In this document: piece after piece, positions 40,875 through 62,666 of the stretch
Layout of the letters: each line of letters starts with the position of its first letter
How positions within the stretch are numbered: the stretch's first letter is position 1
Assembly (NCBI GenBank): GCA_963840455.1
Contig: CAWIYV010000011.1
Span: forward strand, 533,066 to 597,065
Source: Nitrospirota bacterium
GTDB taxonomy: Bacteria; Nitrospirota; UBA9217
Direction of reading: 5' to 3'
Length of the DNA stretch: 64,000 bases
Translations under genes and position numbers: made by a program
Notes under the pieces: generated by a model
What the model was told of the DNA's origin: nothing
The model's database searches: none
Seen by the model: the letters and a program-made list of their open reading frames with translations, nothing else

Positions 40875-43595
40875 CTACGGTCCCGTCTGCCCCGCTGCCT
40901 GTCTCCGCAGCACCGCCTTCAGCGCCTCCATGGACAGCAGCACGACCGCGCTGATAGCCATGACTGTGGCAAGGTCCTTAAACGTGGGAAGCCTGATCCC
41001 GAAGGTCTCGCGCAGCGCAGGGATCTGGATAAGTCCGAAGGCCAGCACCAGTTCCCAAAAGATCGCCAAGAGCAGCCACTTGTGGGGCGGCGCCTTGAAG
41101 ATGCTGTACTTGAGCGAGCGGAAGCTCATGGCGATGACCAGCTCGACCACGATGAAGAGGAAGAACATCTCGGTCCGCATGTGTTCGATCTCTCCCAGGT
41201 CATGGAAGAAGAGCCAGAAGAAAAGCGGAGCCTCCACGACGAGCGCCAGCAGGATGAAGGTCATCACTTCCCGGGTGAACACGCTTTCCTTCGGGTCCCG
41301 CGGCGGCCGCTGCATGATGTCCGGGTCGGGCGGCGACACGCCCAGGGCGAGAGCCGGCAGGCCATCGGTCGCCAGGTTGATGTAGAGGATGGCGGCGGGC
41401 AGGAGCGGCAGATATTCCGGCCCCATCATCAGCACCACGCCGCCGATGACGGCCACCTCGGTGATGTTGGCGCGCAGGAGATAGGTGAGATACTTCTTGA
41501 TGTTGTCGTAGATCCAGCGGCCGCGCTCGATCGCCGAAACGATGGTGGCGAAGTTGTCGTCCGTCAGCACCATGTCCGCCGCCTCCTTCGTCACCTCGGT
41601 CCCGGTGATGCCCATGGCGATGCCGATGTCGGCGTGCTTCAGCGCCGGGGCGTCGTTCACGCCGTCACCGGTCATGGCCACCACGTCGCCGCGCTGCTTC
41701 CAGGCCTTCACGATCTTGAGCTTGTCCATGGGCGACACGCGTGCGTAGACGGTGACGGTCTGCACGATCGCGGCGAACGCTTCGTCCGACAACTTCTCCA
41801 GTTCCTCCCCCGTGAGGACCCGGTCGCCCTCCTGGTGAATGCCCATCTCCCGGGCAATGGCCACGGCAGTAAGCTTGTGGTCGCCGGTGATCATGACCGG
41901 TTTGATGTGCACCTGCTTGCAGACCCGGATCGCCTCAATGGCCTCGGGCCGAGGCGGATCCATCATGCCGGCAAGGCCGAGGAAGACCATGTCGTTCTCC
42001 ACATCATCCTCGGACAAGGCGGCGCCCGCCGGCAGGTCGCGGGAGGCCAGGCCGAGCACACGCAGAGCATCCTTTGCCATGCTCTCATTCGCGGCGAGTA
42101 TGGCATCCCGGCCCTCGGGCGTGAGCGCACGCGGCCCGCTCTCCTCCATCACATGGCTGCACCGCCCCAACACCAGCTCAGGGGCTCCCTTCATGCAGGC
42201 GGTGCGCTGTCCGGCCTTTTCATGGATCGTGGTCATGCGCTTCCGTTCCGAACTGAAGGGGATCTCCTCCACCCGCGGGCTCCCGAGCCTCGTCTCGCGA
42301 ACGCGCATGTCCGCCTTGGCCGCAGCCACGACGAGCGAGCCTTCGGTGGGATCTCCGGTGACGCGCCACTGTCCGTCCTTCTCCTGCAGGTCCGAATCGT
42401 TGCACAGGACCCCGCACTTGAGGAACTCCTCGAGGGGACGGTTCCCGACAGCCTTGAGAGTCTCTCCGCGCGCGGTGAACCCGCCCTCCGGCGCGTACCC
42501 CGCCCCGCTTACCTCGATCATCGTGCCCGGCAGATACAACTTCCGGACGGTCATCTCTCCCCGCGTGAGCGTGCCGGTCTTGTCGGTGCAGATCACCGTG
42601 GTGCAGCCCAGCGTTTCAACAGCAGGCATCTTGCGCACCAGCGCGTGCTCCTTCGCCATCTGGCGCATACCGATGGCGAGCGCGCCGGTCACGATGGCGG
42701 CGAGGGCCTCGGGAACCGCGGCAACGGCGAGGGCGATGGCGAACATGGTGATCGTCACGATGAAAGGCAGTTCAACGGTCCCCTTGGTGAGATATTCACG
42801 GGCGATGCTGATGCCCGCGACCAGGATGCAGATGCCGAGGGCGATCATGCCGAGCCATCTGCCGATCTCCTCGGTCCGCTTCTCCAGCGGCGTCTTCTCC
42901 GTCTTGACCGTGGAGACTTCCTCGGCGATCTTGCCGAACTCGGTCCCCATGGCCGTTGCGGTGACCACGGCCCTTCCCCGGCCGTAGGTGACCGTCGTTC
43001 CCGTAAAGACCATATTCCGCCGGTCGTTGACCCGCGTCGCTTCAGGGAGCGCGTCCGCGGACTTGCCCGCGGGCATGGATTCTCCGGTGAGCGATGCCTC
43101 GTCGCACTTCAGAGAGTGCCCCTCCACAATGCGGCCGTCAGCCGGGATCTTGTCGCCTGCCTCGAGGACCATGATGTCGCCGGGCACCAGGTCCTTCGAC
43201 GGCACATCCTCCTCCCGTCCGGCCCGCAGGACCGTGATCGTCGGGGAGAGCATCTTCTTGAGCGCCTCGATCGCGCGCTCGGCGCGGTACTCCTGGATGA
43301 AGCCGAGGACCGCCACGAAGACCACGATCACGGCAATGATGGCCGCGTCCATGACCTCGCCGACCAGCGCGGACAGCGCAATGGCGACCAGCAGGATGAT
43401 GACCAGCACGTTCTTGAACTGACCCAGGAACAGGGCAAAGGGCGAGACGCCCTCCTCCTTCCGGAGCTCGTTCGGACCGTACTGACCCAGCCGCCGGGCC
43501 GCCTCCGCCGCGGAGAGGCCCTTCCGCGCGTCTGTTTTCAGCTCTGCGATGACCTGGGCTGATTCGCGTGCATGCCATGCCTGTTGTGTCATTCG
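40875..43595 (-). CDS. P-type cation-transporting ATPase (PIIA Ca2+/Mg2+-type)
   Basis: Phosphorylation motif ICTDKTGTLT, plus TGDHKLTA, MTGDGVNDAPALK and 10 predicted TM helices. Start set at MTQQAW (GGAGA RBS); an alternative start lies 17 codons upstream. Confidence 0.9.
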   Translation of the reverse strand, partial: RMTQQAWHARESAQVIAELKTDARKGLSAAEAARRLGQYGPNELRKEEGVSPFALFLGQFKNVLVIILLVAIALSALVGEVMDAAIIAVIVVFVAVLGFIQEYRAERAIEALKKMLSPTITVLRAGREEDVPSKDLVPGDIMVLEAGDKIPADGRIVEGHSLKCDEASLTGESMPAGKSADALPEATRVNDRRNMVFTGTTVTYGRGRAVVTATAMGTEFGKIAEEVSTVKTEKTPLEKRTEEIGRWLGMIALGICILVAGISIAREYLTKGTVELPFIVTITMFAIALAVAAVPEALAAIVTGALAIGMRQMAKEHALVRKMPAVETLGCTTVICTDKTGTLTRGEMTVRKLYLPGTMIEVSGAGYAPEGGFTARGETLKAVGNRPLEEFLKCGVLCNDSDLQEKDGQWRVTGDPTEGSLVVAAAKADMRVRETRLGSPRVEEIPFSSERKRMTTIHEKAGQRTACMKGAPELVLGRCSHVMEESGPRALTPEGRDAILAANESMAKDALRVLGLASRDLPAGAALSEDDVENDMVFLGLAGMMDPPRPEAIEAIRVCKQVHIKPVMITGDHKLTAVAIAREMGIHQEGDRVLTGEELEKLSDEAFAAIVQTVTVYARVSPMDKLKIVKAWKQRGDVVAMTGDGVNDAPALKHADIGIAMGITGTEVTKEAADMVLTDDNFATIVSAIERGRWIYDNIKKYLTYLLRANITEVAVIGGVVLMMGPEYLPLLPAAILYINLATDGLPALALGVSPPDPDIMQRPPRDPKESVFTREVMTFILLALVVEAPLFFWLFFHDLGEIEHMRTEMFFLFIVVELVIAMSFRSLKYSIFKAPPHKWLLLAIFWELVLAFGLIQIPALRETFGIRLPTFKDLATVMAISAVVLLSMEALKAVLRRQAAGQTGP

Positions 43596-43628
43596 ATTCT
43601 CCTGTCGCCCAATGGTTGCTGCTGGAAC

Positions 43629-43672
43629 AAAAAAGACCTTTACCACGGTTGTTCCTTAACGTGGTAAAGGTC
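43629..43672 (-). terminator. strong intrinsic-terminator hairpin ~35 nt upstream of the P-type ATPase start
   Basis: Plus strand AAAAAA-GACCTTTACCACG-(12 nt loop)-CGTGGTAAAGGTC. Perfect 13-bp stem then U6 on the minus-sense RNA. Confidence 0.55.
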
Positions 43673-50745: not shown

Positions 50746-52212
50746 TTATGAATCCCAATCCAGCAGCCGTTTCTGGCCTTCTAGCTTCCTGATGTCCGTC
50801 ACGTCCTGGCTCACTTCGAGCGTCCCCCGGTACGCCCCCTTCTCGTCGCGCACCGCGAAATACTGGATCAACAGGAACCTGCCCTTCATCTGGATCCAGA
50901 AATCAGCTTTGTCGCGCCTGCCTGCCCGGAACTCATCCAGGATCTTCTGCACCATGCCAAAGCTCTTGGGCGGGTGGCAGTTCTGGACCTTCCGGCCGAT
51001 GACGCCGGGGCTGCGCGGGAAGATGCGGTCCTTCGTCGCGGAGTAGTACCGAACCTCGTCCTTCTCGTCAACGAAGGAAATATCCACCGGCATATGCTTC
51101 AGAAGCATATTGACCTGCTCCGCGGTCATTACCCCGGTGTCGAGCATGACCTCACTTTCCTGGCCGGCGGGCCGTTCCTTCGCCTCTTCGGCGCTCATAG
51201 TCCAGTCCGCCTCCGGCCTGATCCATGCATAGCCGATCTCCTCCTCGCCCTGCCGCACCTTGCCCCACTCCTTGTCGGTCAGGAGGTCCTTCGCCATGGG
51301 GAAGAGGATGTGCTCTTCCTTATAGATCATGTCGCGCATGCTCTTCGACAGGTATTGCAGCGTGCTCATCACATCGGGAACGAGCGCGTCCCTGACGCCG
51401 GCCTTAGCGCTCTTCACGGCCACGCGGATGTCGTCGTGGAGCGCCCACATGACCTGCGAAGGCCCGGTGATGCCATGGACCTCGAGCACCGGGAACAGCT
51501 GGTTCTCCTTCCGGAGGTAATGAAGGTCGATGGTGCTGAGCTGTTCGACGAGCTTTGCCAGCACCTCCCGCTCCTTTTCAAAGGCAGCCTTTTCCGGAGC
51601 TTCGCCGAGCCTCGCCAGGACGTGGTCCAGCCCGTGCAAGATGCCCTCAGCGGCCCGGTTCTCGAGCATATAGGTATGGAGCGGATGGCCCGGCGGGACC
51701 ACCGGTGCGTCCTGCGCTGAAAGCGACTCCTTGAACACCTCCACGTGCACATCGCAGAGCCGTTTCACCTCGCTCTCGGGCATTCCCTCTGCCATGAGCC
51801 GCTGCTCCATCTTCGCGATCTCGGACGGATCGATGTCCTTGATGAGCTCGTGGAACCGGTGCTTGAGAACGGACATCTCAACGTCTTTGTGCAGGTCCCG
51901 GATGATGTCCTTCAGCAGCTCCTGGCGGGCATCGGCGTCCATGAGCGGGGCGCTCCCGGCCGTCGCGGACCCGATCGCCACGTCCGTGCCGGTCCGCTTC
52001 CTGATCTCCGCCGCGATATCCGCCAGCAGCGCGGTCAGTTCGATGTTGCCGATGGATGCTGCCTGCGCAACCGTCGCCACCTTTCCCACGGTCTTCCGCA
52101 TGACCGCGTTTTCCAGCAGCTTGAACTTGGGCGAGCGGGCGATCAGGAATTCCATCAGGAAGGGGTATTCCTTCAGCAGGTCGTCGATCTTCGTGTTGGC
52201 ATTCAGCTCCAT
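50746..52212 (-). CDS. DUF1858/DUF438-hemerythrin-PAS sensory protein
   Basis: N-terminal DUF1858-like segment (IDDLLKEYPFLMEFL). Central hemerythrin-like His/Glu-rich helices. C-terminal PAS-like region. This architecture is common in anaerobes. Confidence 0.6.
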   Translation of the reverse strand: MELNANTKIDDLLKEYPFLMEFLIARSPKFKLLENAVMRKTVGKVATVAQAASIGNIELTALLADIAAEIRKRTGTDVAIGSATAGSAPLMDADARQELLKDIIRDLHKDVEMSVLKHRFHELIKDIDPSEIAKMEQRLMAEGMPESEVKRLCDVHVEVFKESLSAQDAPVVPPGHPLHTYMLENRAAEGILHGLDHVLARLGEAPEKAAFEKEREVLAKLVEQLSTIDLHYLRKENQLFPVLEVHGITGPSQVMWALHDDIRVAVKSAKAGVRDALVPDVMSTLQYLSKSMRDMIYKEEHILFPMAKDLLTDKEWGKVRQGEEEIGYAWIRPEADWTMSAEEAKERPAGQESEVMLDTGVMTAEQVNMLLKHMPVDISFVDEKDEVRYYSATKDRIFPRSPGVIGRKVQNCHPPKSFGMVQKILDEFRAGRRDKADFWIQMKGRFLLIQYFAVRDEKGAYRGTLEVSQDVTDIRKLEGQKRLLDWDS

Positions 52213-54084: not shown

Positions 54085-54981
54085 CTAATAGCTGAATCTG
54101 ACACCTACGCTGAAGATATTATCGTTACTGCTCGTGCCCGGGACGTTCGAATCACTCATCTGATGATCATATTGAGCATCTATAAACCATCGTTTGGCAA
54201 ACTCCTGCGCAACACCCGCGGAAATGGTATTCGACGTAACCTGGAAACCTGCAGGCTCATCATAATCGCGCACGAGGTGGTTGTACCCGAGAAGAAGCGT
54301 TGTTTTTGGCAGAACTAGGTAACCTCCCCAGATCCCGATGAAGTTTCCCGTGTAGGTGAAGAACGCCGAATCTGCATTGTTCTTTTCATAGTAATAGCTT
54401 TCCTTCAGCCAGAGTAACGGCGTGAACTGCTCCTTGAAGGTCACTATCGGGCCGAACGCTGAGCTGTCTCGCAGTGAATCCGTGTATCGTTTGATGGCGC
54501 CATTGATCGCGAGTCTGACCGTGACGATATCGCCCAGATTCTTATCAATACCGGCGGTCAAGCCTCCGATGGTGTTATCGAATTCGTTAAAGCTGTTGTA
54601 AGAAGTGTGCTGTGCGCTGCCAATCAGGAACAGGTATGTCCCGGAGGCTATGTCGGTCGAACCGCCGATGTCCGCGAAATAATTGATCGAGAAATCGCTC
54701 TTCGATTGCACTCCCGTATCTTGCGGGATACTGCCTCCCATGCCGCCCATACCCCCCGGGCCCATTACAGCGCCCATCATCCCGGGACCGGTTGCAGGCA
54801 TTCCCGCCGTGCCGCCGCGCTTGTCTGATAAGAGACCTACAACATTGTCTTCATAGGTACCTCTAATTGCCACGTCATAGAATATTCCGGCCTGCGCGAC
54901 TGAAGCAATAGTGAGATACAGGAACAGAACAATGCAGCCGGTGATCGCCGCATTTACCGCCCGATGAGATCGCATGTGCAT
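54085..54981 (-). CDS. putative outer-membrane beta-barrel protein
   Basis: Signal peptide. Gly-rich loop. Alternating amphipathic strands. C-terminal ...VGVRFSY aromatic terminus. AGGAGAGG RBS. Confidence 0.5.
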   Translation of the reverse strand: MHMRSHRAVNAAITGCIVLFLYLTIASVAQAGIFYDVAIRGTYEDNVVGLLSDKRGGTAGMPATGPGMMGAVMGPGGMGGMGGSIPQDTGVQSKSDFSINYFADIGGSTDIASGTYLFLIGSAQHTSYNSFNEFDNTIGGLTAGIDKNLGDIVTVRLAINGAIKRYTDSLRDSSAFGPIVTFKEQFTPLLWLKESYYYEKNNADSAFFTYTGNFIGIWGGYLVLPKTTLLLGYNHLVRDYDEPAGFQVTSNTISAGVAQEFAKRWFIDAQYDHQMSDSNVPGTSSNDNIFSVGVRFSY

Positions 54982-55152
54982 TTCCTCTCCTACGCTCACG
55001 CCAGTATACTTTTGTTGTGTATATCAGAAATAATAAAAATCGACTTGTTATAAGTATAACAGGGCAAAATATTAAAAAAGGCAGCCGCATGGTGCGACTG
55101 CCATATGAGGTTGGTTTGCTTATGGTCATGTAAACAGCGGATCTTCGTTACG

Positions 55153-55845
55153 TTACCGTTTTGGCCCGCCCATGCCAGGCCCCATGCCGGAACCATGATC
55201 CATTCCCATACCGCCGTGGTCCATTCCCGGCCCGGTGCCCATGTGATCACGGTCGTGCGACATATCCCGGTCATGCTGCCTGGTCCTGTCTCTGTCCATG
55301 GCCCGCGTCGCGTTGTCCGCGGCCTTGTCGGGAGGAGTTCCGGACTTTAAGTCCCCGGCATAAGCAGTCGTGGCGGCCGTTATACTGGCGGCTCCGGCCC
55401 CTTGATTGATCCCATTGGACATTACCTGCGAGGTCCTGTCGGCCGGGGCGCCTGCTGCCACAGTCTTGCCGAAAGTGTTCGTCATCTGCACCGTTTCCCG
55501 CGCAGTGTACCTATGCTGTATCGCCTCCCCTGCCACCGAGGCTGCATCTTTCCTCGCAGCGGGTCCCGCTGCCTCTATGGACCTCGCGACCTCGGCCAGG
55601 TCCTTGCCTTTCATGCCCTGGTTGATGGATGCTTCGACCACGCGGTAGGCATGATCAACAGGCACACCCTTGTCCACCAGGCTCTGCAGCGTCTTCACTG
55701 CCTGGGAGTGGTCCTGGGCATTCAACTTCTTTTCCGTAGCCTGCCTGTCAATGTTGGTCTTTGCTTCATCCACGGTAAGAGCGAATGCCGTCATACCGAA
55801 CAGCAGAATGCTCCCTGTCACAATTATCGTCAGTAGCTTTTTCAT
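55153..55845 (-). CDS. secreted protein with helical repeats and a Met/Gly/His-rich C-terminal tail
   Basis: Signal peptide MKKLLTIIVTGSILLFGMTAFA. C-terminus HDRDHMGTGPGMDHGGMGMDHGSGMGPGMGGPKR. GGAGG RBS. Confidence 0.6.
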   Translation of the reverse strand: MKKLLTIIVTGSILLFGMTAFALTVDEAKTNIDRQATEKKLNAQDHSQAVKTLQSLVDKGVPVDHAYRVVEASINQGMKGKDLAEVARSIEAAGPAARKDAASVAGEAIQHRYTARETVQMTNTFGKTVAAGAPADRTSQVMSNGINQGAGAASITAATTAYAGDLKSGTPPDKAADNATRAMDRDRTRQHDRDMSHDRDHMGTGPGMDHGGMGMDHGSGMGPGMGGPKR

Positions 55846-55892: not shown

Positions 55893-56810
55893 TTACTTCC
55901 GCCCGCCCATGCCTGACATGCCTCCCATGCCGCCGGAGGCAGGCTCGTGCATCGTCCCTCCTCCGGACCTGTCCTGCATCTGCATGTCACGCATCCCTTC
56001 GCCCCGCTCCATGCGGGAGTTCATGCCGGAAACAACATCGTTCATGGGGCGATCCTTCCTGAGCTCGTTGACCATGTAGCGCTCCATGGCCTCCAGGTCT
56101 CCTTCGGAATAGCCCTTGTCCACTGCCGTATGGACCATTTTCGCGGCCTGTCCGGCAGTCATGCCGCTCCCAGCAAAGGTGGTCATCGTATCCACCGCCC
56201 GGCTGAACAACCCGAGCGATCCTTTGCGATCCCTTACTTTCTCTCCGGTCTTCATGATAGCATCCTGCGGGATCGACTTTTCCATCGCTCTCGCCGCGGT
56301 CTCGATCGCATCATCGTACGCTTTTGCATGGGGTGCCTTTACGCCCCCGCTCTCCACCCTGTTCACGAGCGGTTTGGCAGCGGCAAGGTACCCGGAAAGC
56401 CGTTGCGTAACGCCTGATATCTTCTCCGCAGGTACGCCCTTGGCAAGCCCCTGCTCGGTCCGGTCAAGGATGAGCCTGACCGGCAAGCCCTGTCCTTTTG
56501 CCCTCGTTGCAGTTTCGAGGAAACCCTCAACATGGCGGCTCTCTACGCCCTGATCCAAGCCGCGGGTGATAATGATGGAGACATCCTCGGCCGGAATGCC
56601 CGCAGCCACCGCCTGACCGGCCTTGGTCAGTATGCCGGCCTTGGCTTCCTTCGAGAGCGAGGACCTTTCTACAGCGATCCTTGCCTGTTCAAGATGCTTC
56701 GATCCCGCCTCTTCCGCCCTGGCGGGCGGCGCCGCCGTCAGGAGCGCTGCTGCGGCCAGCAGCAGGACAATCAGAATGTTAAAAATGCCCTCTGTCATGT
56801 TCCTTTTCAT
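55893..56810 (-). CDS. paralogous secreted protein with a Met/Gly-rich C-terminal tail
   Basis: Signal peptide. Repeated ~35-aa G.P.E....G motifs similar to 55153..55845. C-terminus MQMQDRSGGGTMHEPASGGMGGMSGMGGRK. Confidence 0.6.
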   Translation of the reverse strand: MKRNMTEGIFNILIVLLLAAAALLTAAPPARAEEAGSKHLEQARIAVERSSLSKEAKAGILTKAGQAVAAGIPAEDVSIIITRGLDQGVESRHVEGFLETATRAKGQGLPVRLILDRTEQGLAKGVPAEKISGVTQRLSGYLAAAKPLVNRVESGGVKAPHAKAYDDAIETAARAMEKSIPQDAIMKTGEKVRDRKGSLGLFSRAVDTMTTFAGSGMTAGQAAKMVHTAVDKGYSEGDLEAMERYMVNELRKDRPMNDVVSGMNSRMERGEGMRDMQMQDRSGGGTMHEPASGGMGGMSGMGGRK

Positions 56811-57466
56811 GTCTTGACCCTCATCACAGCATTTTTGTTTCCGAAGCCGTCATCGCGGTAGGTCTCCGCGTTCGGGTCGGTCACCCATGCCTTTCCATCC
56901 ACAATGAACATGTAACTGTACTCCCCGGGCTTCAGAGGTATGCTGACCGTCCAAACCCCGTTTTCCTGCTTCGTGAGCATATGTGCATCAGCCTTCCACT
57001 TATTGAACGTGCCCGCAACCGCCACTCGATGAGCTTCCGGCGCGTGCAGGTTCATGGTCACCGTCACGACTTGTTCCTGCCGGGGAACGGCTGCGGTCTC
57101 AACAGGCGCGTTCCGGGTGCGAACGACCTGGGTGAAGACCAGGGCGAAGAGCACCGCAGCCGCAAATGCCGTGGCCATGTTCCACCTGAGCACCCGTCCC
57201 TTGAGCAGGAAATCCCGTATCCGGTTCGTGATCGTCGCTTTTCGTGCGGGCAGCCGCCGCATGACCTCTGCGGTAAAGAAGGGAGGGGCCTGCATCCTCT
57301 CGCTCGTCTCGATCGTACGGAGCGCTCCCGTAATACCGTCGAGCTCTTCCTTAAACGCAGGATCCGACTGAACTCGGTCCAAAAGCACCTTCTTTTCGTC
57401 AGGGCCGAGGTCCCCGTCCAGCATCCGGTGAATAAGTTCCCTATCGATTTCTTGTCTATCCGTCAT
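56807..57466 (-). CDS. anti-sigma factor (single TM) with a periplasmic AMPK-beta/CBM48-like glycogen-binding-type domain
   Basis: N-terminal anti-sigma helix region and one TM segment. C-terminal VAVAGTFNKW...GVWTVSIPLKPGEYSYMFIVDGKAWVTDP...DDGFGNKNAV. Overlaps the ECF sigma gene stop (translational coupling). Confidence 0.7.
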   Translation of the reverse strand: MTDRQEIDRELIHRMLDGDLGPDEKKVLLDRVQSDPAFKEELDGITGALRTIETSERMQAPPFFTAEVMRRLPARKATITNRIRDFLLKGRVLRWNMATAFAAAVLFALVFTQVVRTRNAPVETAAVPRQEQVVTVTMNLHAPEAHRVAVAGTFNKWKADAHMLTKQENGVWTVSIPLKPGEYSYMFIVDGKAWVTDPNAETYRDDGFGNKNAVMRVKT

Positions 57467-58023
57467 AAGCCAACCCCCATGCCTTCCAGGAGCTTTCTGA
57501 GCATCTCTCTTCCCCTGTGTGCACGTACTTTGAGAGCGCTGACCGAGACACCCAATGCGTCGGAGATCTCCTGATAATCAAGCCCCTCAATATGCTTCAG
57601 GACGATCACCTCGCGGTAGTCAGGGGGCAGCCCGTTCAGTGCGTGCTGGACCGCGTCCCCGGTCTGGCGGCAGGAAGCAATCTTCTCCGGCGAGGGGTCC
57701 GGCCCTGCGGTATAGTCGCAGATCTCATCTACCGGCACGGTCTCCTTGCCTGCTCTGAAATGATCGCGGCACTTGTTCACCACGATCCGGTACAGCCAGG
57801 AGGAAAACCGGGAATTGAACTTAAAATCCCCGAGTGCATTATAGGCTGAAATAAAGCCTTCCTGCGCCATATCCTTGGCCGCATCAGAATCACCGAGCAT
57901 CCGAAAGGCGATATTGTATGCCATGTCCTTGTACCTGTCCACCAGCACTGCATATTGGTCGGAGTCGCCGGCGAGGCACTTTCTGATAACGGCATATTCT
58001 TCTTCAACGCTATCTGCGCTCAT
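57463..58023 (-). CDS. ECF-family RNA polymerase sigma factor
   Basis: Region 2 (YKDMAYNIAFRMLGD...DMAQEGFISAY...FSSWLYRIVVN) and region 4 (LPPDYREVIVLKHIEGLDYQEISDALGVS). Confidence 0.9.
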   Translation of the reverse strand: MSADSVEEEYAVIRKCLAGDSDQYAVLVDRYKDMAYNIAFRMLGDSDAAKDMAQEGFISAYNALGDFKFNSRFSSWLYRIVVNKCRDHFRAGKETVPVDEICDYTAGPDPSPEKIASCRQTGDAVQHALNGLPPDYREVIVLKHIEGLDYQEISDALGVSVSALKVRAHRGREMLRKLLEGMGVGL

Positions 58024-58058
58024 GTTGTACCTATTAGACGATGATTGACTCGAAAAGG

Positions 58059-58446
58059 TTACAGCCCGGGATTCTCTTCCGGTACAATAAGAACGGAATT
58101 CTTCCCGCCGAACCCGTCGTCAATTTCCGGGACAGAAGGGTCTGGCTGCCACTTTTTCCCGTCTACGATGAACAGATATTCGTACCGCCCTTCAGGGAGG
58201 GGGATGATAATGTTCCAGACACCCTTATTATCGGCTCCGGACAACCTGTTCTTATGAGTGTCCCAGGCATTGAAAGCTGCCGGCAATCGCGACACTGCTT
58301 GCCTCTGGCGCATAAAAGGTGAAAGAGACGCCCTCTTTCGTCAGCTCCGGGCCCAGGTGCTTCGGTCCGCAGGCTGATATGAGCGAGCAAAAGAACAGGA
58401 TCGATATCATGGACAGGCGCGGTTTCATGGTTATTGTAGATTTCAC
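58059..58446 (-). pseudogene. lipoprotein consisting of a CBM48-like domain, interrupted by a 1-bp frameshift
   Basis: ORF 58252..58446 (lipobox LISAC, ...VSFTFYAPEASSVAIAGSF) and ORF 58059..58313 (NAWDTHKNRL...GVWNIIIPLPEGRYEYLFIVDGKKWQPDP) join as ...AIAGSFNAWDTH... if one T is removed from a TTT run near 58265. Confidence 0.55.
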
Positions 58447-58530
58447 TATATGTTTATGATACCGCTCGTTTCACAAGGTTTGCAAGGTAAACATTGATTT
58501 ACATGGCCTGGACAGGGAAAACAGGACGGC

Positions 58531-58564
58531 AAAAAAGCGGCAGCCGGACCTTTATCCGGCTGCC
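58531..58564 (-). terminator. intrinsic terminator after the Met-rich lipoprotein gene
   Basis: Plus strand AAAAAA-GCGGCAGCCGGA-ccttta-TCCGGCTGCC. 9-10 bp GC stem then U6 on the minus-sense RNA, 32 nt after the stop. Confidence 0.6.
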
Positions 58565-58595
58565 CTAAGTTTACAGCAGTTTAAGTAAGGATGCT

Positions 58596-60338
58596 TTAGA
58601 TCGCCCCGTTGGTGGTGCTCAACTGGTTGATGAGCGTTTGCATGTTGGTCGTGGTAAGGGTTGATCTGTTCATGGCAGAACCCAGGAACGAAGTCATTGC
58701 ACTCGCCAATCCGCTGGTCCCTGCCGTGGACTGCATCATGGTACCGCCGCCACCCATCATGCCACCACCCATACCACCCATGGTTATCTGGGTGCTTCCC
58801 ATCTGACCGTTCATGATGCCGTCCGAAGCATCGTTCATCATGGACAAGATCAGGGCTGCGGGGTCCGTCATGCTGATGGTCTGTGCATACTGAGACATGG
58901 CGGCAATGGCAACGCCGTAGTTCTTCATGTCCACAGTAGCAGTACCGCCGGATCCTAGTACTGCCGCATTCATCGGGACGGTTTCAAGTATGTTGGACAC
59001 CATGAAGTAGTTGCCAACCGCCGTGTTTGCTGCCGTAATATTGGCATCAGTCATACCGCCTGCCATTGCCTGGGCACGGGCCTGCGCCATAGACGTAAGA
59101 GGAGTCATCTGAATGCCCGTGATCGTGGCTCCGCTTGAGATGGTTGGAATGACTGCGGTCATCACATCGCCGGCCGACATGGTCATGGTTGTGCCGGTTG
59201 CCAGGTTGTTATACGACCCCCCGCTCATCTTGAGCATGACCGGCCCGGAATAGGCGCCGAGGGACAGGCTGAAGCTGCCCATGCTGTTCGTGGTCCCGCT
59301 AGCCAATTGAGCGCCCAGAGAGCCGCCACTCACTGCGTATGCCATGACCGTGGCGTTGCCCATCGTTCCGTTGAAGACCGATCCGCCGACCATCCCGCTC
59401 ATCGGCGTTCCTCCGCCACTCGGAATGCTGCCGGTCGCCGAAGTAGTCAACTTGTTCATGAGCGCCGTCATGTCTCCAGCAGTTACGCCTGACTTATTCA
59501 GGGTGGAGGTCATGAACGTCGCCATTTCCGTGGCGAGCCCGCTCGTCCCCGCAGTTGTCGTCATCATGGAGCTGCCGGCCATCATTCCGCCCATCATGAC
59601 CGGGGTACCTCCCATCAAGCCGTTCATAACGCCGTCCGACGCGTCATTCATCATGGCCGTGACCATGTTGGAGGAAGAGGTCATTCCCATGTCCTTCGCG
59701 GATTGCGACATTGCCGCGATGGCCATGCCGTAGTTTTTCATGTCCTGGGTCGCGGTGCCGCTTGATCCGGACACAAGCGGGCTCATGGGTGGCGTATGCA
59801 GGATATCGTTCACGATGAAGTAATTTCCTATTGCGGTGTTTGCTGCCGTGATATTTACATCCATCATGCCGCCCGCCATATTATTTGCCATTGCCTGGGC
59901 CATGGAGGTCAGAGGGGTTACTTGAATTCCGGTAACCGTCGAGCCGGTAGATAGCGTTGTCATAACAGCGGTCATCACATCACCGGGAGCCATGGATACG
60001 GTAACGCCGGTCGCCTCATCCACGTATGTTCCACCGCCCATCTGAAGCATAATGGAGCCTGCATAGTCGCCAACTAATATATTGAAATTTCCCTGACTGT
60101 CCGTTGCTCCACTGGCGAGTTGCATGCCCATGGTCCCATTGGTGATGGCATATGCCGTTACTGTCCCTCCGCTAATCGGTCCCTTGACCGCCGTACCACT
60201 GATCATTCCGTTAGCGCCTGTTGTTCCTCCAGGAGTCGTCGCACTGCTCCCTCCTCCGCCACAACCATAAAGAAGCGACATTGACCCGATTAAGAGAGTG
60301 AGAGTTAACATTACCTTGAGTTTCTTGTGCTTTTGCAT
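58596..60338 (-). CDS. extremely methionine-rich lipoprotein with an internal tandem duplication
   Basis: Signal peptide plus LLYGC lipobox. 69 Met in 580 residues by hand count (~12%). Also Gly/Thr/Ala/Ser-rich, no Cys after the lipobox, 1 His. Two ~250-aa repeat units (GNFNILVGDYAGSIMLQM... versus GSFSLSLGAYSGPVMLKM...). Confidence 0.7.
   Translation of the reverse strand: MQKHKKLKVMLTLTLLIGSMSLLYGCGGGGSSATTPGGTTGANGMISGTAVKGPISGGTVTAYAITNGTMGMQLASGATDSQGNFNILVGDYAGSIMLQMGGGTYVDEATGVTVSMAPGDVMTAVMTTLSTGSTVTGIQVTPLTSMAQAMANNMAGGMMDVNITAANTAIGNYFIVNDILHTPPMSPLVSGSSGTATQDMKNYGMAIAAMSQSAKDMGMTSSSNMVTAMMNDASDGVMNGLMGGTPVMMGGMMAGSSMMTTTAGTSGLATEMATFMTSTLNKSGVTAGDMTALMNKLTTSATGSIPSGGGTPMSGMVGGSVFNGTMGNATVMAYAVSGGSLGAQLASGTTNSMGSFSLSLGAYSGPVMLKMSGGSYNNLATGTTMTMSAGDVMTAVIPTISSGATITGIQMTPLTSMAQARAQAMAGGMTDANITAANTAVGNYFMVSNILETVPMNAAVLGSGGTATVDMKNYGVAIAAMSQYAQTISMTDPAALILSMMNDASDGIMNGQMGSTQITMGGMGGGMMGGGGTMMQSTAGTSGLASAMTSFLGSAMNRSTLTTTNMQTLINQLSTTNGAI
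58600..60175 (-). repeat. intragenic tandem duplication (two ~0.75-0.8 kb units) inside the Met-rich lipoprotein gene
   Basis: Protein-level repeat units ~45% identical with conserved blocks (DVMTAV, TGIQ.TPLTSMAQA, ITAANTA.GNYF, DMKNYG.AIAAMSQ, MMNDASDG.MNG). Unit boundaries are approximate. Confidence 0.6.
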
Positions 60339-60386
60339 TTGTTACATCCCCCTAAATTAAACTAATTTTACTGCCATTGTGATTTA

Positions 60387-60412
60387 GACGAGGTAACGAC
60401 TAAAAGGTTACA
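60387..60412 (-). promoter_or_regulatory. candidate ECF-sigma-type promoter TGTAAC-N16-CGTC upstream of the Met-rich lipoprotein gene
   Basis: Minus-strand sequence TGTAACcttttagtcgttacctCGTCTAA. Predicted start site ~40 nt before the ATG at 60338. GGGGGA RBS follows. Confidence 0.4.
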
Positions 60413-61039
60413 AATAACTTCACGACGAGTTATTCCTTAAATATCGTCTCATCTATCTTTGAATACTGCAAAACAGGATAATTGTCGATTTCAAGCAGCG
60501 GATAGTTGAAAAAAGAGCCCACTCGACGCATGCCAGATTATTGGGATTTCCTTCGGGAAGAACAACGGCTTGACGTGATGGTATTAGGTCTACGTAAGGC
60601 TAGTTCTCTGAAGAAACTACACTCCAGTGACCAAAAATCAAATGTTGAAGGATGAGGCTCTTTCTTATCTCTTTGCCGCTTGCCTCCTCCCAGGCTAAAC
60701 ATCTGCGCCCTGCCGACTGTTTCGATGTTATGCAACTCTGTATGTTCCGACTCTGCGCAAACGAAGTCAATAATAAAAGCGAAATGCATGGATAAATAGA
60801 TTGCGACTGTTGCACATTTAAACGATGTTGTACTCGCAGTCATATATAATCGCCGCTTCCTGCCGCTATTATCGCAACTTCAAATCAGCGCAAGACAAAT
60901 CCATACATGTTTACCTGTAACCTTTTATGATTTGTTTCGTCTCATATGGCATCAACCCGGAAGAAGAATATTTTATCGGAGCTCCAAAGAAAGAATAATA
61001 TTTTTTATTCTAACGTGTTTACTGCGAGGGAGTCGCATT

Positions 61040-61540
61040 ATGAAAATGAAGAGGTTATTGATTGCATATTTTCTGAGCGGTGTGTTTGCTGTTTTTGGAC
61101 TGTTCTCTCCGGTTGCTGGCAATGCGGGGATAAATGTAGACATTAATGTTCCCCTGCCCGACATCGCCATAGCCGGACCGCCAGCCATGGTGGTTGTCCC
61201 CGGCGCCTATGTGTACTTTGCCCCTGATGTTGAAGCTGACCTTTTTTTCTATCACGGATACTGGTACCGGCCCCATCAGGGAGGATGGTATTATTCGCTC
61301 GGATACAACGGGCCCTGGGGCCGCATAACGATCGGGAATGTGCCGCCGCCGCTGGTCAGTCTGCGGCCCGGCTATCGGAATGTACCTCCAGCCTATGAGC
61401 GCATGCCCTACCCTGTGGTACAGAGGTACTGGAGACAATGGGAAGAGGAACGGTACTGGGATTCCTATCAGAGAAGTGATGAGCATCCAGCGCCCCATCG
61501 GGGTCATGGTATGGGTATGGGCAGGGGAATGGGAATGTAG
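61040..61540 (+). CDS. secreted Tyr/Trp/Pro-rich protein with a C-terminal GHGMGMGRGMGM tail
   Basis: Start set at MKMKRLLIAYFLSGVFAVFG (signal peptide); the ORF is open from 60932. C-terminal (MG)n run. Confidence 0.5.
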   Translation: MKMKRLLIAYFLSGVFAVFGLFSPVAGNAGINVDINVPLPDIAIAGPPAMVVVPGAYVYFAPDVEADLFFYHGYWYRPHQGGWYYSLGYNGPWGRITIGNVPPPLVSLRPGYRNVPPAYERMPYPVVQRYWRQWEEERYWDSYQRSDEHPAPHRGHGMGMGRGMGM

Positions 61541-61844
61541 AGGCGTGGGGACTGATGGTCTAATTAGTATCGTATCGACGATGCGGATTTCGTCAAGTAT
61601 ACTTGCTGGTCTGCACTGCCAATTTTGCGGCGGAGCAAAGAATTCATGATGTAATATGCCCTTGAGCGAGCGGAAAAACGTGGTGTGACAAAATAAGAGC
61701 TAATTCCTGATTGGAATTTTCAGAGAAAGCCACGGGATCGGCCAGTCCCGGGATGATCCTAATCGCCGATTCCGGGCCTTCTTAAAAGATGCAACTTTCC
61801 TATTGCATCTATCCCGTGCGCGGGGGTAAAATTTATAAGAGGTT

Positions 61845-62666
61845 TTGCTCATGGCCTTGACGGCATTCCTTCCACCTTCGAACCCTCATCAGCCGCAAGC
61901 CTCTATACGGAACATTCGCATGCACATGTCCGACCTCTTATCGACAGATCTTCCCGCGACCGACGCCGCGCCGCAGCCGATGTTCTGCGCGGCCATTGCC
62001 GGGTTCATCCGTTGCGCCTTCCGGCGCCCTGTCGCGGGACGGGTCCTCGCCGTCGCCGCGCTCATGGCCGCTGCGCATGCCCCTGGAACAGCCCGGGCAA
62101 CGGAGCTGGCGTCCCTAAACTTTACGGTCGTTCATCCGGCACAGCGTTGGTCCTCGGCGCCGCTCGTCCGGGAGACCTACGACACGTACAATGTCCACGG
62201 CACCAGCATTCCCGAGCTGTGCGCCTGCCTAAGCCGTAACGGCGTCCGGATGAATAACGGCGACATTTACGATGCCCTGACCAGCTGGGATGTGAAGTGG
62301 GAGTACGACTACGATCGCTCCCCTGGCGGATGCTCGGTGGATGACTTCCGCGCAGTCGTGGACGTGACCATCCGCTACCCCCGCTGGGTTTCGAACGATG
62401 ACGCCCCTGCTCCGCTGGCAAATGCCTGGGACGCCTTTCTGCACAGCCTCATCCAGCATGAACAGGTCCACCGCGATATCGCTGTGGCAGCCGCCGACGG
62501 GCTGATCCGCGCCGCTACCGCGATCCCGCCTGCGGCCACCTGCGCTGACTTGGACCGGGCCGTGGAAGCCCTTGGCCGATCATTCATGAAGCAGCTCACG
62601 CTGGACCAGCATGCCTATGATGCTGAAACCAGCCATGGCGCCATGCAGGGCGCCGTCCTTCCCTAG
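61845..62666 (+). CDS. DUF922-like putative secreted zinc metalloprotease (HExxH)
   Basis: HEQVHRDI HExxH motif near the C-terminal third. Probable signal peptide if the start is the internal Met near 61980. Confidence 0.55.
   Translation: MLMALTAFLPPSNPHQPQASIRNIRMHMSDLLSTDLPATDAAPQPMFCAAIAGFIRCAFRRPVAGRVLAVAALMAAAHAPGTARATELASLNFTVVHPAQRWSSAPLVRETYDTYNVHGTSIPELCACLSRNGVRMNNGDIYDALTSWDVKWEYDYDRSPGGCSVDDFRAVVDVTIRYPRWVSNDDAPAPLANAWDAFLHSLIQHEQVHRDIAVAAADGLIRAATAIPPAATCADLDRAVEALGRSFMKQLTLDQHAYDAETSHGAMQGAVLP

Follow-up and report, generated by a model that had tools for sequence, protein, structure and literature searches.

A methionine-rich tandem-domain lipoprotein behind an ECF-type promoter in a Nitrospirota bacterium, a candidate envelope buffer for Cu(I) and Ag(I)

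Here we describe a gene for an extremely methionine (Met)-rich lipoprotein on a stretch of 64,000 nucleotides (nt) from a Nitrospirota bacterium of the lineage UBA9217 (assembly GCA_963840455.1, contig CAWIYV010000011.1, positions 533,066 to 597,065). This whole stretch is called the window, and coordinates refer to it unless a homologous locus (L001 and so on) is named. The gene was first noticed in a reading of the sequence alone (the sequence-only reading), which viewed the product as an internally duplicated lipoprotein that could serve as a metal chelator or an oxidant sponge.

Results

The gene and its product

The coding sequence and the parts of its product are as follows, where repeat units were delimited by self-alignment and AlphaFold2 modelling and pLDDT is the predicted local distance difference test score.

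58596–60338, minus strand: coding sequence of the Met-rich lipoprotein, 580 amino acids (aa), stop codon at 58596–58598, 100% match to P0001 in a public protein collection
60261–60338, minus strand: lipoprotein signal peptide, residues 1–26, lipobox LLYG/C, C26 conserved in at least 90%
Residues 27–43, minus strand: Gly/Ser/Thr linker after the signal peptide, disordered in the model (pLDDT below 50)
59433–60209, minus strand: repeat unit 1, residues 44–302, with a beta-sandwich at about 44–140 and a helical Met-rich domain at about 141–300
58599–59432, minus strand: repeat unit 2, residues 303–580, with a beta-sandwich at about 315–411 and a helical domain at about 413–575
59562–59600, minus strand: Gly/Met loop 1, VMMGGMMAGSSMM, residues 247–259, pLDDT low at 252–256, columns missing from relatives that are not Met-rich
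58734–58784, minus strand: Gly/Met loop 2, TMGGMGGGMMGGGGTMM, residues 519–535, pLDDT low at 523–531

The position of the open reading frame (ORF) and its composition, 69 Met in 580 aa (11.9%), matched the sequence-only reading exactly, and both Met runs quoted there were found again as the two Gly/Met loops. The other residues are mainly Gly (15.5%), Thr (13.8%), Ala (11.4%), Ser (10.5%) and Asn (5.7%). Trp is absent, His occurs twice, Cys only once (C26 in the lipobox LLYGC), and charged residues account for just 5.7%. Among the 85 window ORFs of at least 150 aa (mean Met content 2.8%, standard deviation 1.8%), 11.9% was the highest value, lying about 5 standard deviations over the mean. Since Met has one codon, base composition is not the cause of this enrichment.

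The protein has the marks of a lipoprotein, as had been claimed: a fitting signal peptide, MQKHKKLKVMLTLTLLIGSMSLLYG followed by C, and a lipobox (family consensus LLFGC) with the conserved Cys26. The sequence ..ACGGGG (also given as ..AACGGGG) was present at the lipobox of every proteobacterial homologue examined. The claimed tandem units with conserved Met positions were recovered by self-alignment, in which the two units of about 265 aa shared 56% identity over 264 columns and 22 columns held Met in both (34 and 30 aligned Met, respectively). The spacing of Met pairs was biased, with i+4 pairs (MxxxM) enriched 1.66-fold, i+8 pairs enriched 1.5-fold and i+2 pairs (MxM) depleted to 0.38-fold; the enrichment at i+4 and i+8 therefore points to Met stripes along helices.

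Met enrichment is conserved among close homologues

A word-indexed search found 832 homologues, and the composition figures are taken from the best 120 of these 832. They shared 51–100% identity with the query over at least about 90% of its length, and Met made up 8.7–13.3% in all 120. Homologues occur in two-unit (about 580 aa), three-unit (about 840–930 aa) and one-unit forms. A scan of one genome per species gave 79 homologous loci, belonging to Nitrospirota, Anaeromyxobacter, Burkholderiales (Polaromonas, Rhodoferax, Aquabacterium, Rubrivivax and Ramlibacter), Thiobacillaceae, Gammaproteobacteria, Syntrophus, Desulfurivibrionaceae and Hyphomicrobiaceae. At phylum level, the spread of close homologues includes Desulfobacterota, and the cultured Anaeromyxobacter species with homologues are A. 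oryzae, A. oryzisoli, A. terrae and A. soli.

Conservation was measured on an alignment of 52 members, comprising the query and 51 homologues of 52–93% identity. Column conservation was 0.80 for Met and 0.71 for other residues, and 35 of the 66 mature Met positions were conserved in at least 90% of the members. A lineage-specific compositional quirk is ruled out because the Met columns are conserved better than the others across homologues. Judged from this conservation, from the Met-rich composition of all 120 listed homologues and from their occurrence in several phyla, the enrichment is the result of selection and not of drift.

In Pfam and NCBIfam scans the protein fell into no significant family, and literature searches returned no description of it; a copper transcriptome study of D. 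alaskensis had no bearing on the family. A plasmid search yielded distant relatives only. On the evidence of these comparisons, the Met-rich lipoproteins form a conserved and unannotated family outside every named family.

Met-poor relatives carry the same domain

An exhaustive HMMER search over 1.84 billion cluster representatives (50% identity) returned 1908 relatives, of which the nearer ones contain about 7–15% Met. In distant relatives the same 250–300 residues aligned at 25–45% identity with a Met content of 0.6–2.5%. Among the distant relatives are many giant extracellular lipoproteins built of several domains, such as Big, fn3 and PKD-like ones, with the parent domain widespread at their N-terminus. 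The sequence-only reading had named homologues lacking Met enrichment as the result that would speak against it; such homologues are absent from the 120 listed close ones and from the nearer cluster representatives, all of them Met-rich, but do exist among distant relatives of the same domain, at about 1–2% Met.

The contrast is visible in a direct comparison of one segment, which reads NYGLILAGLSQQAKILGLSDPFDLVIALAQDSNDGIFDG in the low-Met protein P0152 and NYGMAIAAMSQSAKDMGMTSSSNMVTAMMNDASDGVMNG in the query. A joint alignment was then evaluated at its Met columns, defined as columns with at least 50% Met in the Met-rich group (33 per unit). About 20 of the 33 are core-type positions, because low-Met relatives have Leu, Ile, Val or Phe there; about 10 are surface-type positions, because Lys, Arg, Gln, Glu, Ser or Gly is found there; and the remaining 3 lie within the Gly/Met loop that low-Met relatives are missing. 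Met was substituted in, since the fold is that of the low-Met relatives. The alignment thus describes the Met-rich subfamily as an ordinary surface-lipoprotein domain rebuilt with Met, and by its missing columns Gly/Met loop 1 is an insertion specific to this subfamily.

Predicted fold

The AlphaFold2 model built on the 52-sequence alignment had a mean pLDDT of 81, with the tether and both Gly/Met loops disordered. Unit 1 modelled alone with the same homologue set reached a pLDDT of 56, its helical domain being largely unconfident, and this model was left out of the fold search. The difference between two units (81) and one (56) may mean that the helical domains of neighbouring units pack together.

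A Foldseek search against the PDB returned mainly transthyretin/CarboxypepD_reg-like sandwiches (E values of 1e-2 to 1e-3). The first half of each unit resembles the transthyretin-like sandwich of CarboxypepD_reg (PF13620), although the Met-rich query itself stays under the Pfam threshold; precomputed PF13620 matches exist on a few homologues. The non-heme domain of PgcA, an extracellular cytochrome of Geobacter, was matched weakly as well (9i0d; target-normalised TM-score 0.47, E 7.8e-4): the sandwich-plus-helices unit aligned with it over 160 columns, but at 18% identity and beyond the reach of sequence profiles. PDB searches with profiles of Met-rich and Met-poor relatives gave chance matches only (nanobodies, P450) and did not recover PgcA, and we keep this resemblance as a lead only. 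No structure of a Csp copper storage protein was among the top 50 listed Foldseek matches.

Copper genes in the neighbourhood of homologues

For 70 non-redundant homologous loci, we clustered the ORFs lying within 6 kb. Genes for a copper P1B-ATPase (CPC motif), CusA, CusB, CusC or a CueO-like multicopper oxidase were found in 21 of the 70 loci. NCBIfam confirmed a Cu P-type ATPase (TIGR01511), CusA/CzcA (TIGR00914), CusB, CueO and a heavy-metal sensor kinase (TIGR01386), with several of the copper assignments above curated cut-offs. A six-frame search, which is independent of ORF calling, was performed within 10 kb of the gene in 80 homologous loci and detected copper-homeostasis genes in 29 of them. 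At least 23 of these are robust cases, with either a CueO-like oxidase or a match above 50% identity to CopA or CusA. The loci with strong matches belong to Nitrospirota, Myxococcota, Burkholderiales, Gammaproteobacteria, Thiobacillaceae and Desulfobacterota. By estimate, such copper genes would be present in about 1–2% of random genomic windows of 12–20 kb. As a control, the loci of low-Met relatives had copper genes in 0 of 26, a small sample of short contigs (160 kb) for which the rate in the Met-rich loci predicts about 3.7.

The closest associations are with multicopper oxidase genes. In L030 and L031 the stop codon of the Met-rich gene overlaps the start codon of the oxidase gene, an arrangement by which the two genes are, from their sequence, translationally coupled, and in L016 the Met-rich gene directly follows the oxidase gene.

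Promoter, terminator and the ECF sigma regulon

The elements around the gene and the neighbouring genes that share its promoter motif or their cluster are as follows, where ECF stands for extracytoplasmic function and promoters were located by motif scan.

60386–60412, minus strand: ECF-type promoter P1, TGTAACCTTTT-N11-CGTCT, about 45 nt upstream of the ATG of the Met-rich gene
58036–58063, minus strand: ECF-type promoter P2, same motif, immediately in front of the ECF sigma gene, same arrangement in L009, L039 and L060
60916–60942, plus strand: ECF-type promoter P3, same motif on the opposite strand
60413–60434, minus strand: perfect inverted repeat AATAACT-N8-AGTTATT abutting the −35 element, conserved in L003 and partly in L001
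58539–58564, minus strand: intrinsic terminator with an 11-bp stem (8 G-C pairs) ahead of TTTTTT, starting about 32 nt past the stop codon
57463–58023, minus strand: ECF sigma factor (Sigma70_r2 and r4_2, Pfam/NCBIfam scans)
56807–57466, minus strand: anti-sigma factor, single-pass, whose C-terminal periplasmic domain is CBM48/AMPK1_CBM-like, 4-nt overlap with the sigma gene
55893–56810, minus strand: secreted protein p305, 305 aa, no known family, tail ...GMRDMQMQDRSGGGTMHEPASGGMGGMSGMGG, 4-nt overlap with the anti-sigma gene
55153–55845, minus strand: secreted protein p230, 230 aa, no known family, tail ...DRDHMGTGPGMDHGGMGMDHGSGMGPGMGG with MDHG motifs
54085–54999, minus strand: probable outer-membrane beta-barrel, 304 aa, N-terminal GMPATGPGMMGAVMGPGGMGGMGG segment, weak porin-like matches
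61040–61540, plus strand: divergent secreted protein p202, ending ...HRGHGMGMGRGMGM (GHGMGMG tail); ORF listed from 60932, likely start ATG at 61040
58059–58446, minus strand: gene of a small lipoprotein (CBM48/AMPK1_CBM-like domain), interrupted by a frameshift of 1 nt, an additional T in the run 58273–58275

Both the ECF-type promoter and the strong terminator of the sequence-only reading were borne out, and the promoter can now be assigned to the neighbouring sigma gene, which is preceded by the same motif. Exactly three sites in the 64-kb window fit the motif TGTAACCTTTT-N10-13-CGTCT, where chance would give 0, and they precede the Met-rich gene, the adjacent ECF sigma gene and the divergent gene of p202. 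In 17 loci, including some that lack an adjacent sigma gene, the motif also stands 50–75 nt ahead of the homologous gene. As a rule, ECF sigma factors drive the transcription of their own genes, and P2 is presumed to reflect autoregulation. Because the same motif precedes the sigma gene, we place the Met-rich gene in the regulon of this sigma factor, a membership supported by the shared −35/−10 motif. A Shine-Dalgarno-like sequence (GGGGGA) lies upstream of the ATG of the Met-rich gene, and the inverted repeat next to the −35 element is a possible operator. Rejected on the strength of conservation, confident fold prediction, promoter, Shine-Dalgarno sequence and terminator was the reading of the ORF as non-coding or as a low-complexity artefact.

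About 220 nt upstream of the gene (60339–60560) are conserved in the window, L001 and L003, well past the promoter. Rfam gave no match over 58000–61200, and a riboswitch or small RNA in this long conserved leader is therefore not supported.

The set of sigma, anti-sigma, secreted and barrel genes recurs beside the Met-rich gene in 8–9 Nitrospirota loci, p305 co-occurring with it in 8 loci and the 304-aa barrel protein in 6. Pfam and NCBIfam assigned no family to p305, p230 or p202; p202 shares 46% identity with L003_177, in an alignment beginning at residue 37. The C-termini of the secreted proteins of the cluster are rich in Met, Gly and His (e.g. ...GPGMDHGGMGMDHGSGMGPGMGG). The Met-rich insert of E. 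coli CueO reads AGMDHSQMMGHMGHG in the MG1655 record, and the GMDHG and GHGMGMG tails of the co-regulated proteins resemble in sequence this Cu(I)-binding insert. The probable barrel protein with its Met-rich N-terminus has the same layout as PcoB.

The small CBM48 lipoprotein is represented by ORFs of 64 and 84 aa in the window and is intact in relatives (116–134 aa). At the frameshift site the window reads AGCTTTCAAT, as against AGCTTCAAT in L009 and L039, which means that either a homopolymer was misread in sequencing or the gene has recently become a pseudogene. The CBM48-like domain shared by the anti-sigma factor and the free lipoprotein suggests that the two are a sensor/partner pair.

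In the Polaromonas and Rhodoferax homologues (L020, L021) the sequence GAACC-N15-CGTATC lies about 60 nt upstream and resembles an ECF-type promoter of another kind, a hint that ECF control of the gene reaches the Betaproteobacteria.

Regulator genes and 23%-Met proteins beside other homologues

In A. oryzae Red232 (NZ_AP025591.1, with a homologue at about 563.1–565.8 kb) an ECF sigma gene and an anti-sigma gene at L015 8441–9696 lie immediately upstream of the three-unit homologue and are co-oriented with it, and a PKD/Big lipoprotein gene lies downstream. The anti-sigma factor belongs to the NrsF family (PF06532, 49.5 bits against a cut-off of 26.8). A second, shorter paralogue is encoded elsewhere in the same strain, beside a TetR regulator (L081).

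Secreted proteins of 141–144 aa with 23% Met flank the gene in 5–6 Nitrospirota loci: L004 12029–12463, L011 8670–9095, L012 3613–4047 and L014 6314–6739, with weaker cases in L064 and L066. These proteins (e.g. MMGNQMMSQDMMRDMAGMMRQMNDMMGKMSGFMEH...) contain many charged residues and several His, and NCBIfam gives no family for them.

Discussion

We propose that the Met-rich lipoprotein buffers or chaperones Cu(I) and Ag(I) in the envelope by means of its thioethers, a reading to which we give a probability of roughly 45%. Cys26 would anchor it in the cell envelope by a flexible Gly/Ser/Thr tether, and its body, two tandem domains each made of a beta-sandwich and a helical part, would be a folded scaffold presenting about 66 thioethers as i/i+4/i+8 helix stripes and two floppy Gly/Met loops. 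Located in the periplasm or on the cell surface, such an array could buffer soft metal ions at high capacity, above all Cu(I) and perhaps Ag(I), and either retain them or deliver them to oxidases or efflux pumps. In CusA, CusB and Ctr1, three-coordinate sites made of Met alone are known to bind Cu(I) and Ag(I). The gene would be transcribed alone from a promoter read by the neighbouring ECF sigma factor, once that factor is set free by the anti-sigma factor with its CBM48-like periplasmic domain, and the same regulon would supply further proteins whose tails are rich in Met, Gly and His, some secreted and one in the outer membrane. The metal-chelator idea of the sequence-only reading has gained copper-gene neighbours in at least 23 of 80 loci; the function itself, along with localisation, metal binding, metal specificity and inducing signal, is what we infer from the observed composition, duplication, conservation, predicted fold, shared promoter motif and gene neighbourhoods.

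Among the nearest known systems are the Met-rich copper elements of the periplasm, namely the CueO insert, the MDH repeats of PcoA/CopA, PcoE/SilE, the triads of CusF, CusB and CusA, and the N-terminus of PcoB/CopB. Like them, the lipoprotein is a thioether-rich protein predicted for the envelope, its homologues are linked to copA, cusCBA and cueO-like genes, and its co-regulated neighbours bear GMDHG and GHGMG tails like the CueO insert. It differs from them in having no family match, almost no His and few MxM pairs, and in carrying its Met in a folded domain including the core, not in a disordered loop or a three-residue site.

Several observations weigh against this proposal. Pfam and NCBIfam scans did not support profile hidden Markov model membership in CusF, CopC/PcoC, PcoE/SilE, CopK or CopB. 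There is hardly any His, and the classical MxM spacing is depleted (0.38-fold), though MxxxM is enriched (1.66-fold). The six-frame search and the family scans found no copper gene in the 64-kb window itself, in which the sole P-type ATPase is of the Ca type (40875–43646, minus strand), and about two thirds of the homologous loci had no copper gene nearby. Much of the Met occupies what in relatives are buried sites, and there it may be a plain hydrophobic residue. Finally, the A. oryzae homologue lies directly downstream of genes for an ECF sigma factor and an NrsF-family anti-sigma factor, a SigF/NrsF pair.

This last arrangement leads to the strongest competing explanation, which we consider possible but clearly less probable than a metal buffer: exposed Met thioethers would scavenge hypochlorite, chloramines or peroxide and be re-reduced by a periplasmic methionine sulfoxide reductase (Msr), so that the protein would do, on a large, anchored and folded scaffold, what the MrpX peptide does in Azospira suillum. 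In that bacterium the ECF pair SigF/NrsF, of a type known for oxidant responses, induces MrpX, a periplasmic peptide with 20% Met that is oxidised by hypochlorite, and YedY/MsrP, whose genes yedYZ are co-transcribed with mrpX, was proposed to re-reduce it (PMC4436054). The two systems have in common an exported, extremely Met-rich protein under an ECF sigma/anti-sigma pair, a promoter motif common to the regulator gene and its target and, in A. oryzae, an adjoining gene for a genuine NrsF-family anti-sigma factor; this likeness implies no sequence homology. The 23%-Met secreted proteins flanking the gene in 5–6 Nitrospirota loci are also MrpX-like in composition. The copper neighbourhoods are compatible with an oxidant sink, because in E. 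coli periplasmic Met becomes oxidised under copper stress itself (PMC9302797).

However, NrsF was found in one locus only, that of A. oryzae, and the anti-sigma factor in the window is a single-pass protein matching CBM_48/AMPK1_CBM instead of NrsF. MrpX is small, soluble and 44% charged (PMC4436054), whereas the lipoprotein has 580 aa in folded tandem domains, a lipid anchor, 5.7% charged residues and 11.9% Met. A scan by motifs only, confined to nearby ORFs of about 70–80 loci, found an Msr within 10 kb in one locus (MsrAB) and no MsrP-like motif. In addition, the many Met in core-type positions would react poorly. The oxidant-sponge idea of the sequence-only reading has gained the SigF/NrsF genes of A. 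oryzae and MrpX-like neighbours in 5–6 loci, and scavenging itself we infer with the same caution as metal binding. Buffering of metals and scavenging of oxidants are not mutually exclusive.

A more specific form of the metal-buffer proposal, for which we see rather low odds, treats the helical domains as thioether-lined stores, each unit, with Met side chains making up its would-be hydrophobic core, holding many Cu(I) or Ag(I) ions, as a Met counterpart of Csp outside the cytoplasm. Such a store would have originated by wholesale substitution of Leu, Ile, Val and Phe by Met in an ordinary surface-lipoprotein domain, and it would be used by anaerobes and microaerophiles, where O2-dependent cuprous oxidases cannot work. 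The copper storage proteins Csp1 and Csp3 are reportedly Cys-lined four-helix bundles (Vita et al. 2015). The likeness is one of concept, a helical domain with inward positions replaced by a sulfur ligand as a many-ion Cu(I) store; the ligands are Cys thiolates in Csp and would be Met thioethers here, where the sole Cys is the lipid anchor, and fold and family differ. The comparison is an analogy only.

We regard it as improbable that the protein is a surface or periplasmic scaffold or ligand binder, in which Met would form a malleable hydrophobic surface for hydrophobic partners or minerals, as in the SRP54 M-domain or calmodulin, and which would extend the role of the parent domain in large extracellular lipoproteins. 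The frequent N-terminal place of that domain in giant lipoproteins with Big, fn3 and PKD domains agrees with a scaffold, as do the low charge and the abundance of Thr, Ser, Asn and Gly, a composition typical of surface proteins. The weak Foldseek match to PgcA would fit too, but sequence profiles do not detect this similarity, and a scaffold leaves unexplained the Met at polar surface positions and in the inserted loop, the copper-gene neighbourhoods and the Met/His tails of the co-regulated proteins. A Met or reduced-sulfur reserve, produced under certain conditions and degraded later, is very improbable: it would fit the rise of Met at buried and exposed positions alike, as if total Met were selected, but export and a lipid anchor make recovery of the amino acids costly, control by an ECF envelope-stress sigma factor and copper neighbourhoods are unexpected for a storage protein, and neighbourhood clustering and a Pfam census of 148 neighbours showed no conserved protease or Met-salvage genes nearby. 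We therefore rank the Cu(I)/Ag(I) buffer first and the MrpX-like oxidant sink second, with scaffold and storage well behind.

If Cu(I)/Ag(I) binding is true, a widespread and wholly unannotated component would be added to bacterial copper and silver handling, one that works like the known Met-rich envelope proteins but has a different architecture. It would be of special relevance at low oxygen, where Cu(I) dominates. The family counts more than 800 close homologues (about 1900 at the level of 50%-identity clusters) in Nitrospirota, Myxococcota, Burkholderiales and others from soil, sediment and groundwater. It ties together two defences of shared chemistry, soft-metal binding and oxidant scavenging by thioethers. 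As a case of protein evolution it is unusual, since a conserved fold appears to have had its core and parts of its surface systematically replaced by one costly amino acid, and it offers a natural test of how far Met can stand in for aliphatic residues. The gene cluster would also define a new ECF regulon, with a CBM48-type anti-sigma factor and envelope proteins with Met/Gly/His tails. Direct testing is feasible in the cultured Anaeromyxobacter species that hold homologues.

Other observations in the window

The Pfam census of neighbours was too diffuse to add to the homology clustering. The Ca-type ATPase of the window belongs to type IIA (Ca2+/PMR1-like), and 15 kb separate its gene from the Met-rich one. 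A type-IIA ATPase gene lies directly downstream of the Met-rich gene in two related Nitrospirota loci (L038 12166–14865 and L040 12287–14974), and the two genes may form a recurring association unrelated to copper. An ORF of 101 aa at 60538–60843 is probably no real gene. A few kb from the ECF cluster, 50746–52212 on the minus strand encodes a 488-aa protein with DUF1858, DUF438, hemerythrin and PAS_10 domains, which by its domains likely senses O2, NO or iron. The G+C content falls to 48% at 60001–62000, covering the divergent intergenic region and p202, compared with about 55–64% in most of the window, and further dips to about 51% occur at 12–16 kb and 38–40 kb.

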